64,000 bases of DNA from the NCBI RefSeq assembly GCF_044324875.1, contig NZ_CP172185.1; one strand, written 5' to 3'. Made by a program: the position numbers and the translations under genes. The stretch comes from Escherichia coli. Its GTDB lineage: Bacteria > Pseudomonadota > Gammaproteobacteria > Enterobacterales > Enterobacteriaceae. How positions within the stretch are numbered: position 1 is the first letter of the stretch; each line of letters starts with the position of its first letter. The notes under the pieces were generated by a model, which did not search any database, was not told the DNA's origin, and was given only the letters and a program-made list of their open reading frames with translations. Below are positions 7,040-7,073 of this stretch, piece after piece.

Positions 7040-7073
7040 TATTTATGCAATCAGACAGCATATTGCATAAATA
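7040..7073. promoter_or_regulatory. Perfect inverted repeat (12-bp arms tatttatgcaat / attgcataaata, 10-bp spacer) in the divergent ybgI-dtpD intergenic region; candidate operator
   Basis: Read directly from sequence; lies between divergently transcribed genes. Confidence 0.35.

Follow-up and report, generated by a model that had tools for sequence, protein, structure and literature searches.

The inverted repeat at 7040-7073 of the E. coli sequence analysed here (NZ_CP172185.1; a stretch of 64,000 nt which is called the window throughout) coincides with the core of the dtpD promoter, and on balance we consider it probable that this core is overlapped by an ArgR operator, predicted here, at which arginine-bound ArgR represses dtpD by covering the promoter. 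When arginine is plentiful, the arginine-bound ArgR hexamer would occupy an ARG box, called box 1, that lies over the -10 hexamer and the +1 of dtpD. Its second contact would be either a GCATAT half-box at the canonical 21-bp register or a strong box, called box C, that is 28 bp away, and the bound ArgR would exclude RNA polymerase and thereby lower dtpD transcription. The dtpD site is most likely an apparently unrecorded ArgR repressor site with an unusual spacing. To our knowledge almost nothing has been recorded on the regulation of dtpD, and no paper linking ArgR to dtpD/ybgH was found in the literature searched, a search outside which the target lists of ArgR ChIP-chip and ChIP-exo studies lie.

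The inverted repeat and the dtpD promoter

The repeat reads TATTTATGCAAT-cagacagcat-ATTGCATAAATA, that is, two 12-bp arms that are exact reverse complements of each other around a 10-nt spacer, and it ends at 12 bp per arm with no further extension. This bears out the perfect 12-bp inverted repeat with an N10 spacer that had been predicted originally, the arms being at 7040-7051 and 7062-7073. When the window was simulated with a first-order Markov model, the expectation per 64 kb was 0.11 perfect 12-bp inverted repeats (spacer at most 20), and 8.5% of the simulated windows had at least one perfect 12-bp inverted repeat. The real window has three perfect inverted-repeat loci with a spacer of at most 20 and the two besides 7040-7073 have terminator-like sequence. 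The repeat is unlikely to have arisen by chance. When a 46-mer was folded as a single strand its energy was -8.9 kcal/mol compared to -3.4 +/- 1.35 for shuffles (z = -4.1), and none of 200 shuffles was as good. A 56-bp core was found as one copy with 100% identity in 5230 of 5422 complete E. coli genomes, and the intergenic region of 270 bp belongs to the E. coli core, being present in 5420 of 5426 genomes. Because the 56-bp core is single-copy and identical in that many genomes, a dispersed repeat or a mobile element was ruled out.

The flanking genes had been named as ybgI and dtpD in divergent orientation, and both the names and the orientation were upheld by full-length NCBIfam models and by the strands. 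Downstream of dtpD is phr, which is convergent with it, and downstream of ybgI is pxpB. The naming of YbgI differs between NCBIfam (NF008064, 'type 2 GTP cyclohydrolase I') and RefSeq K-12 ('radiation resistance protein YbgI'). The features of the region are as follows.

6149-6892, minus strand: ybgI, full-length match to an NCBIfam equivalog/subfamily model
6921-6933, minus strand: proximal (main) ybgI promoter, +1 at about 6921, -10 TATGTT at 6933-6928, in conserved blocks
7019-7032, minus strand: best Cra-like element, GCTGAAGCGTGATG, agreeing with the consensus at 8 of 12 positions, with no conservation beyond E. coli
7034-7051, no strand assigned: putative ARG box 1, AATGTATATTTATGCAAT, 15.4 bits, at -16..+2 of the dtpD promoter
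7038-7043, plus strand: dtpD -10 hexamer TATATT, with TG directly before it, placed by its position relative to the mapped start and invariant in orthologues
7040-7051, no strand assigned: left arm, TATTTATGCAAT, covering part of the dtpD -10 hexamer, the discriminator and +1
7050, plus strand: dtpD +1 (Kim et al. 2012, PMC3415461 supplement; SMRT-Cappable-seq, PMC6131387, K-12 position 742,669)
7055-7072, no strand assigned: second box at the canonical register, ACAGCATATTGCATAAAT, scoring -4.7 bits in E. coli, with conservation confined to GCATAT (7058-7063), its left half
7062-7073, no strand assigned: right arm, ATTGCATAAATA, lineage-specific, decaying in several genera with no covariation
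7062-7079, no strand assigned: putative ARG box C, ATTGCATAAATAATCAGA, 15.2 bits, at +13..+30 of dtpD, 28 bp from box 1 centre to centre
About 7072/7073 and about 7090/7091, minus strand: distal starts of the ybgI-pxpBCA-nei operon (SMRT-Cappable-seq, PMC6131387, K-12 positions 742,646 and 742,628)
7163-8644, plus strand: dtpD, dipeptide:H+ symporter, the gene under the predicted control, full-length match to an NCBIfam equivalog/subfamily model

In the supplementary TSS table of Kim et al. 2012 (PMC3415461) the -50..+1 string of dtpD ends in ...AATGTATATTTATGCAA, and this string maps to 7000-7050 of the window, which puts the dtpD +1 at 7050 and gives a 5'UTR of 113 nt. The start listed by SMRT-Cappable-seq (PMC6131387) is the same base. 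The K-12 sequence and the window are collinear around the dtpD promoter and differ by two SNPs, both of which are outside the element. Because +1 maps to 7050, TATATT at 7038-7043 is the -10 hexamer of dtpD, and the palindrome covers -10 to +24 of this promoter. As the start at 7050 is inside the left arm, a hairpin of the two arms in the dtpD mRNA is impossible, and the dtpD 5'UTR is less structured than its shuffles (z = +1.5) and matches no Rfam family. Other candidates for the palindrome were also rejected. The terminator scan flagged only a weak unrelated site at 6992-7005 and there was no Rfam match for a small RNA, while a mini-ORF from the ATG at 7045 to the TAA at 7074 (MQSDSILHK) has its ATG upstream of the dtpD start, is without a Shine-Dalgarno sequence and is not conserved in a codon-like manner. 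Further down in the dtpD 5'UTR, at 7106-7117, is a C/A-rich stretch, AAACACAAGCAC, that is conserved in Escherichia, Salmonella, and Citrobacter and that we take to resemble the targets of the GcvB small RNA. GcvB controls other peptide and amino acid transporters.

The proximal ybgI start is given both by Kim et al. 2012 (PMC3415461, 8 reads) and by SMRT-Cappable-seq (PMC6131387, 742,797), and this main ybgI promoter is about 120-150 bp from the palindrome. The distal ybgI starts are at 7073 and 7091 or at 7072 and 7090, depending on a one-base coordinate offset between the K-12 mapping and the window. Since transcription from these distal starts crosses the palindrome leftward, against that of dtpD, the palindrome is within a face-to-face promoter overlap, which amounts to 24-42 bp. 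A candidate -10 for the start at 7090, TAAAGT (7102-7097), is in a block conserved in Escherichia, Salmonella, and Citrobacter. At 7076-7083, where the -10 of the 7072/7073 start should be, there is an 8-bp palindrome, CAGATCTG, with a GATC (Dam) site, and it is kept in Escherichia and most Citrobacter and not in Salmonella.

Conservation of the promoter core in Enterobacteriaceae

For the comparison, DtpD relatives were collected at 80 loci, with each species represented by a single genome. About 55 of them qualify as true orthologues, at 82-100% identity, and come from Escherichia, Salmonella, Citrobacter, Klebsiella, Raoultella, Kluyvera, Enterobacter-like taxa, Pluralibacter, Yokenella, Silvania, and others; the conservation pattern is that of about 50 dtpD loci of Enterobacteriaceae. 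The intergenic region diverges fast, and only two islands in it are invariant or nearly so, namely TGTATATTTATGCA (7036-7049) and GCATAT (7058-7063). Two loci have one substitution each in the 14-mer at 7036-7049, and the left-arm positions 7040-7049 are unchanged in all the orthologues but one, that of Yokenella, which has one substitution. Pairing of 10-12 of the 12 positions was found only in Escherichia, Citrobacter, Pseudocitrobacter, UBA5654, Intestinirhabdus, and one Superficieibacter (the other Superficieibacter has 9), and the right arm was down to 2-9 of 12 pairs in Salmonella, Klebsiella, Raoultella, Kluyvera, Yokenella, and the Enterobacter-like genera. Among the 29 distinct sequences no pair had changed on both sides and the paired fraction was 72.4%, which is the shuffle mean. 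Because one arm is frozen and the other drifts, the arm symmetry itself is not maintained by selection. Conservation of the palindrome in orthologous intergenic regions was the test that had been proposed for the original prediction, and by this test the 12+12 unit is not kept as its right arm decays.

In Silvania the core is intact though ybgI is not the neighbour of dtpD and the upstream gene is an unrelated, co-directional one. For this reason the conserved core belongs to dtpD. The original view of the repeat as an operator between divergent genes can thus be retained in part: its position on the dtpD promoter, from -10 to +24, is operator-like and it resembles a known type of operator. 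An operator shared with ybgI has to be given up since the core follows dtpD in Silvania and the main ybgI promoter, at about 6921, is some 120-150 bp off. The co-directional ORF upstream of dtpD in Silvania hatchlandensis (L047, 1189-2250) is beta-carbonic anhydrase-like.

Putative ARG boxes and their spacing

ARG boxes were scored with a symmetric weight matrix made from 22 boxes of 11 ArgR targets of K-12 (argA, argE/C, carA, argF, argI, argR, argG, argD, artJ, artP, and hisJ). The boxes at 7034-7051 and 7062-7079 rank first and second among the 63,983 positions of the 64-kb window; for comparison, strong boxes from proven operators reach 14.7-18.1 bits if excluded from training. Both boxes agree with the 18-bp imperfect palindrome wnTGAATwwwwATTCAnw, and 12 of the 14 positions of TGTATATTTATGCA agree with the ARG-box core TGAATwwwwATTCA. 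The palindrome is made up of the inner 12 bp of box 1, which is its right part, and the inner 12 bp of box C, which is its left part, and the outer halves of both boxes, which are beyond the palindrome, also fit the ARG consensus. The best candidate is not a simple dimeric regulator on a 12-N10-12 site, as had been proposed, and would instead be hexameric ArgR on two 18-bp ARG boxes. The end of box 1, ...TTTATGCAAT, resembles that of artJ, ...TATATGCAAT, and that of artP, ...ATTATGCAAT, and the second box at the canonical register starts with ACAG as do the argA and artP boxes. The chance of such a box is about 2e-6 per position in an AT-rich background. In 572 kb of other enterobacterial DNA there were no boxes of at least 15 bits and three of at least 12 bits, and a scan of the arg loci recovered every trained box of at least 12 bits plus one further box of 14.1 bits upstream of argG. 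No ARG boxes were found in 26 upstream regions of dtpC-like genes and distant DtpD homologues, where the peak was 6.1 bits. In the orthologues box 1 scores 9.6-16 bits, with the exception of one Enterobacter-like locus at 6.5 bits. The invariant stretch at 7036-7049 corresponds to positions 3-16 of the ARG core, and the next invariant block begins exactly 21 bp on, which is the expected start of a second box. E. coli ARG boxes normally overlap promoters and are 3 bp apart, or 2 bp in argR (PMC3293853), and relative to the mapped start both dtpD boxes overlap the promoter that they would regulate.

Two weaker ARG-like sequences are present elsewhere in the window. The third-best single box, ATTGAATTTTCATGCTTT, is at 38459-38476, scores 14.3 bits and is about 300 bp upstream of the asnB start, where it adjoins a REP-like sequence and is between asnB and the ORF of an IS110-family (RNA-guided) transposase (37353-38333) that is just upstream of asnB. 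An ARG-like 18-mer of 12.3 bits, GCAGCATAAAAATGCAAT, is at 6255-6272 inside the ybgI coding sequence and is also found in the Escherichia locus L001.

The spacing of the two boxes in E. coli dtpD is a 10-bp gap (28-bp offset) and not the 2-3 bp gap of a tandem, whereas in all 10 proven operators with a scorable pair the offset is 20-21 bp. No partner box was found at +/-20 or 21 bp of either strong box, and an arrangement of two hexamers, each on a strong box and a flanking weak box, was rejected as the flanks score -12.7 to -22.9 bits. The canonical tandem of E. coli totals 10.6 bits, which is below every proven operator, and what is conserved of its second box, GCATAT, is placed as the mirror image of ATGCA in box 1, with the middle of the 3-bp spacer as the axis. 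The background maximum of the tandem score was 13.3 bits in 634 kb, and the weaker proven operators have 17-20 bits when left out of training. The canonical 18+3+18 tandem is present in Klebsiella, Raoultella, Enterobacter-like genera, Pluralibacter, and Silvania with 13.6-20.8 bits, and the box at the canonical register by itself scores 3.4-8.1 bits in Klebsiella, Raoultella, and Enterobacter-like genera. By genus the second boxes are as follows.

Enterobacter-like taxa, Pluralibacter, and K. pneumoniae: second box at +21, tandem 14.3-20.8 bits (most at least 17.6)
Other Klebsiella, Raoultella, and Silvania: second box at +21, tandem 13.6-16.9 bits
Escherichia and Citrobacter: strong box at +28 (10-15 bits), tandem about 10.6 bits in E. 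coli
Kluyvera and Salmonella: no good second box, no tandem

As read from these alignments, the constant part of the dtpD family is box 1 with the inner half-box, and the outer part is movable. The ancestral and conserved unit would then be box 1 plus the inner half of the second box, and a displacement of the second box by 7 bp in Escherichia and Citrobacter would have given rise to the perfect palindrome. The known operators that are most similar are those of artJ, artPIQM, and hisJQMP. Like dtpD, these have 18-bp ARG boxes with ...TTATGCAAT / TTGCATAAA half-box variants, their boxes are over the core promoter and their target is an uptake system. The artJ and artP operators combine a strong box with a weak partner, 17.8 and 1.2 bits in artJ and 14.7 and 4.9 bits in artP when left out of training. 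They differ from dtpD in that the strong boxes of dtpD are 10 bp apart compared to 2-3 bp and that the canonical partner at dtpD is only a half-box. A gap with about one extra helical turn is present in the high-affinity argC operator of B. subtilis AhrC, where it is 11 bp (PMC3293853) compared to 10 bp here. However, that operator is from another organism and is bound by an orthologue, AhrC, and it has a third box inside argC (PMC3293853); no wide-gap arrangement of this type is documented for E. coli ArgR. If the ArgR site is true, the dtpD locus would be a natural E. coli case of ARG boxes with about one extra helical turn, and the sister genera, which keep the canonical spacing, would provide a comparison for how far a hexameric repressor tolerates changes in operator geometry.

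It is also conceivable, though we hold it to be unlikely, that in Escherichia and its closest relatives ArgR uses the two full boxes, with their 10-bp gap, as a non-canonical operator which balances the dtpD and the distal ybgI-pxpBCA-nei transcription units. Such an operator would be in the overlap of 24-42 bp, where box 1 would cover -16..+2 of dtpD and box C would cover about -7..+12 relative to the 7072/7073 start. Were this so, both dipeptide uptake and the 5-oxoprolinase/endonuclease VIII operon would be tied to arginine status.

Expression data and competing explanations

In the 49 samples that were used from the PRECISE matrix (PMC6892915, Supplementary Data 1), the expression of dtpD correlated with the mean of argF and artJ with r = 0.87, and when the samples with DPD and paraquat (growth-arrest) were left out r was 0.63. 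With or without the growth-arrest samples dtpD was rank 1 for this correlation among 26 genes, and these 26 genes are the whole of the null set. In these samples, with glutamine compared to cytosine/cytidine as nitrogen source, the levels of dtpD, argF, and artJ changed by -0.9, -3.6, and -2.1 log2, respectively. In the same samples ybgI expression ran opposite to that of dtpD and to the argF/artJ signal (r = -0.74). There was no induction of dtpD by cytidine in the samples used, its level being 4.4 log2 TPM compared to 5.4-5.6 on cytosine. The small effect on dtpD expression is consistent with weak repression by ArgR.

The permease is one of four di-/tripeptide permeases of E. coli that are jointly important in gut colonisation (PMC10936423). 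DtpD forms the 'atypical' POT pair with DtpC. The dipeptides that DtpC prefers have lysine, a basic residue, in second place, and the acidic pocket residue of DtpC is common to DtpD (PMC9309889). By analogy, control by ArgR would fit a permease of this pair and would parallel the repression of artJ, artPIQM, and hisJQMP. If ArgR controls dtpD, dipeptide uptake would join the arginine regulon beside the ABC transporters for arginine and basic amino acids, and this would suggest that DtpD imports arginine- or lysine-containing dipeptides. Such a finding would leave general principles unchanged.

Against ArgR weigh the 28-bp offset, the low canonical tandem score and the missing flanking partner boxes described above, as well as the small expression effect with its null set of 26 genes. 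Moreover, Kluyvera and Salmonella are without a good second box, and the central A/T positions of box 1 are frozen, which is more conservation than ArgR alone would require, so that promoter constraints could explain much of the invariance of box 1. An explanation that goes further, and that has a modest chance of being right, is that the conserved 14-mer is just the -10, the discriminator, and the start of dtpD, that GCATAT reflects a constraint on the initial transcribed region, and that the right arm and the ARG likeness are accidental in AT-rich DNA. The start at 7050, which makes TATATT the -10 hexamer, the drift of the right arm and the frozen A/T positions just mentioned all agree with it. 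What it does not account for is that the discriminator and +9..+14 are not normally frozen across genera, that two boxes of at least 15 bits within 28 bp have a chance expectation of about 1e-4 or lower, that both outer box halves beyond the palindrome fit the ARG consensus, and that there are canonical tandem sites of 16-21 bits in other genera. ArgR on the dtpD promoter is the reading that we retain as the more probable. An effect at the RNA level has also to be considered. Stem-loops of the ompA type at the 5' end stabilise mRNAs. The distal ybgI transcripts from about 7072 and about 7090 on the minus strand contain both arms as a 12-bp stem, which could likewise stabilise the mRNA, and the likeness to ompA is that the stem is at or next to +1, in the case of the 7072 start at the very 5' end. 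These starts are listed by SMRT-Cappable-seq (PMC6131387) and the stem is present in both the MFE and the centroid folds. Unlike the ompA type, however, the ybgI stem is AU-rich, comes from a minor promoter and is not conserved, one arm being lost in most genera, and it is without covariation, the pairing being at the shuffle mean as described above. A terminator would have a GC-rich stem plus a U-tract, and the terminator scan does not flag the palindrome. The leaders taken in full show no unusual stability (z = -1.5 and -0.9), no Rfam family matches, and in the dtpD mRNA, whose 5'UTR is unstructured, the left arm is not transcribed. We regard a functional hairpin as very improbable.

LexA boxes are defined by CTG and CAG triplets (CTG-N10-CAG with an AT-rich centre). 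That the dtpD promoter has such an SOS box, as BPROM predicted for a cloned fragment, is hardly credible, even though the 20-mer at 7033-7052 matches 15 of 20 consensus positions and the cloned fragment responded to mitomycin C (PMC7606416). Both triplets are broken as the site reads ATG...GCA-A, the match is due to a shared AT-rich core of the kind TGTATAT...ATACA, and the cited basis is a software prediction together with a slow and weak induction of a plasmid reporter (PMC7606416); judged by its sequence, the LexA reading is effectively refuted. Another dimer of the LacI type (CytR, GalR, or an unidentified one) that reads TGCAAT-N10-ATTGCA half-sites on one helix face is quite improbable. 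The arms hold tATGCAAt / aTTGCATa, which look like inverted CytR octamers (GTTGCATT) separated by 10 bp, as reportedly described by Pedersen and Valentin-Hansen in 1997. However, each octamer matches at only 6 of 8 positions across the 10-bp gap, no convincing flanking CRP sites were seen by eye and cytidine, the inducer of CytR, did not induce dtpD in the PRECISE samples used. For GalR, an information-theory scan (PMC5110547, Table 2) gives an 11.2-bit GalR-like site whose centre is near 7054, but this site is only predicted in silico, the text of that paper mentions dtpD nowhere else, and the best match to the GalR consensus in the region is weak (9 of 14) and outside the palindrome. For the LacI type in general, the ARG likeness runs past the TTGCAT core into both outer halves, and the second half-site is missing in most genera.

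Cra (FruR) is the repressor for which binding has been reported in vitro, and the palindrome could in principle be the operator at which it represses dtpD on gluconeogenic carbon sources. According to Li et al. 2021 (PMC8085971), purified Cra shifts a dtpD promoter fragment in EMSA, dtpD is newly listed as Cra-repressed, and its expression dips on acetate and succinate. In their EMSA screen, Cra bound the promoters of 24 of 57 genes (PMC8085971). The consensus GCTGAANCGNTTCA is absent from the palindrome, which matches GCTGAANCGNTTCA / RSTGAAWCSNTHHW at best at 7 of 12 positions, and a better element, GCTGAAGCG, is upstream of it at 7024-7032. This element is not conserved even within Escherichia, and the window has 8 exact copies of the Cra half-site GCTGAANCG. 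That the palindrome itself is a Cra operator is likewise quite improbable, and GCTGAAGCG probably explains the published EMSA on the dtpD promoter. On the minus strand at -26..-18 of dtpD, GCTGAAGCG adjoins ARG box 1 and is absent from E. albertii, E. whittamii, and other genera. For a sigma-54 promoter, Nac, NtrC, TyrR, NsrR, Fur, PurR, and IHF, none was found to fit when consensus sequences were compared by eye, and for Lrp, 7056-7070 agrees at 11 of 15 positions, but sites of that quality number 540 in the window.

Two other inverted repeats were noted in the window. At 8659-8691, between the convergent dtpD stop (8644) and the phr end (8686), is a perfect 14-bp inverted repeat, GCCTGATAAAACGC-N5-GCGTTTTATCAGGC, which from its sequence looks like a shared bidirectional terminator of dtpD and phr. 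At 12308-12337 is a GC-rich hairpin, CCGCCAGCG-TTTC-CGCTGGCGG, that has an A-run before it and a T-run after it and looks like a bidirectional intrinsic terminator.
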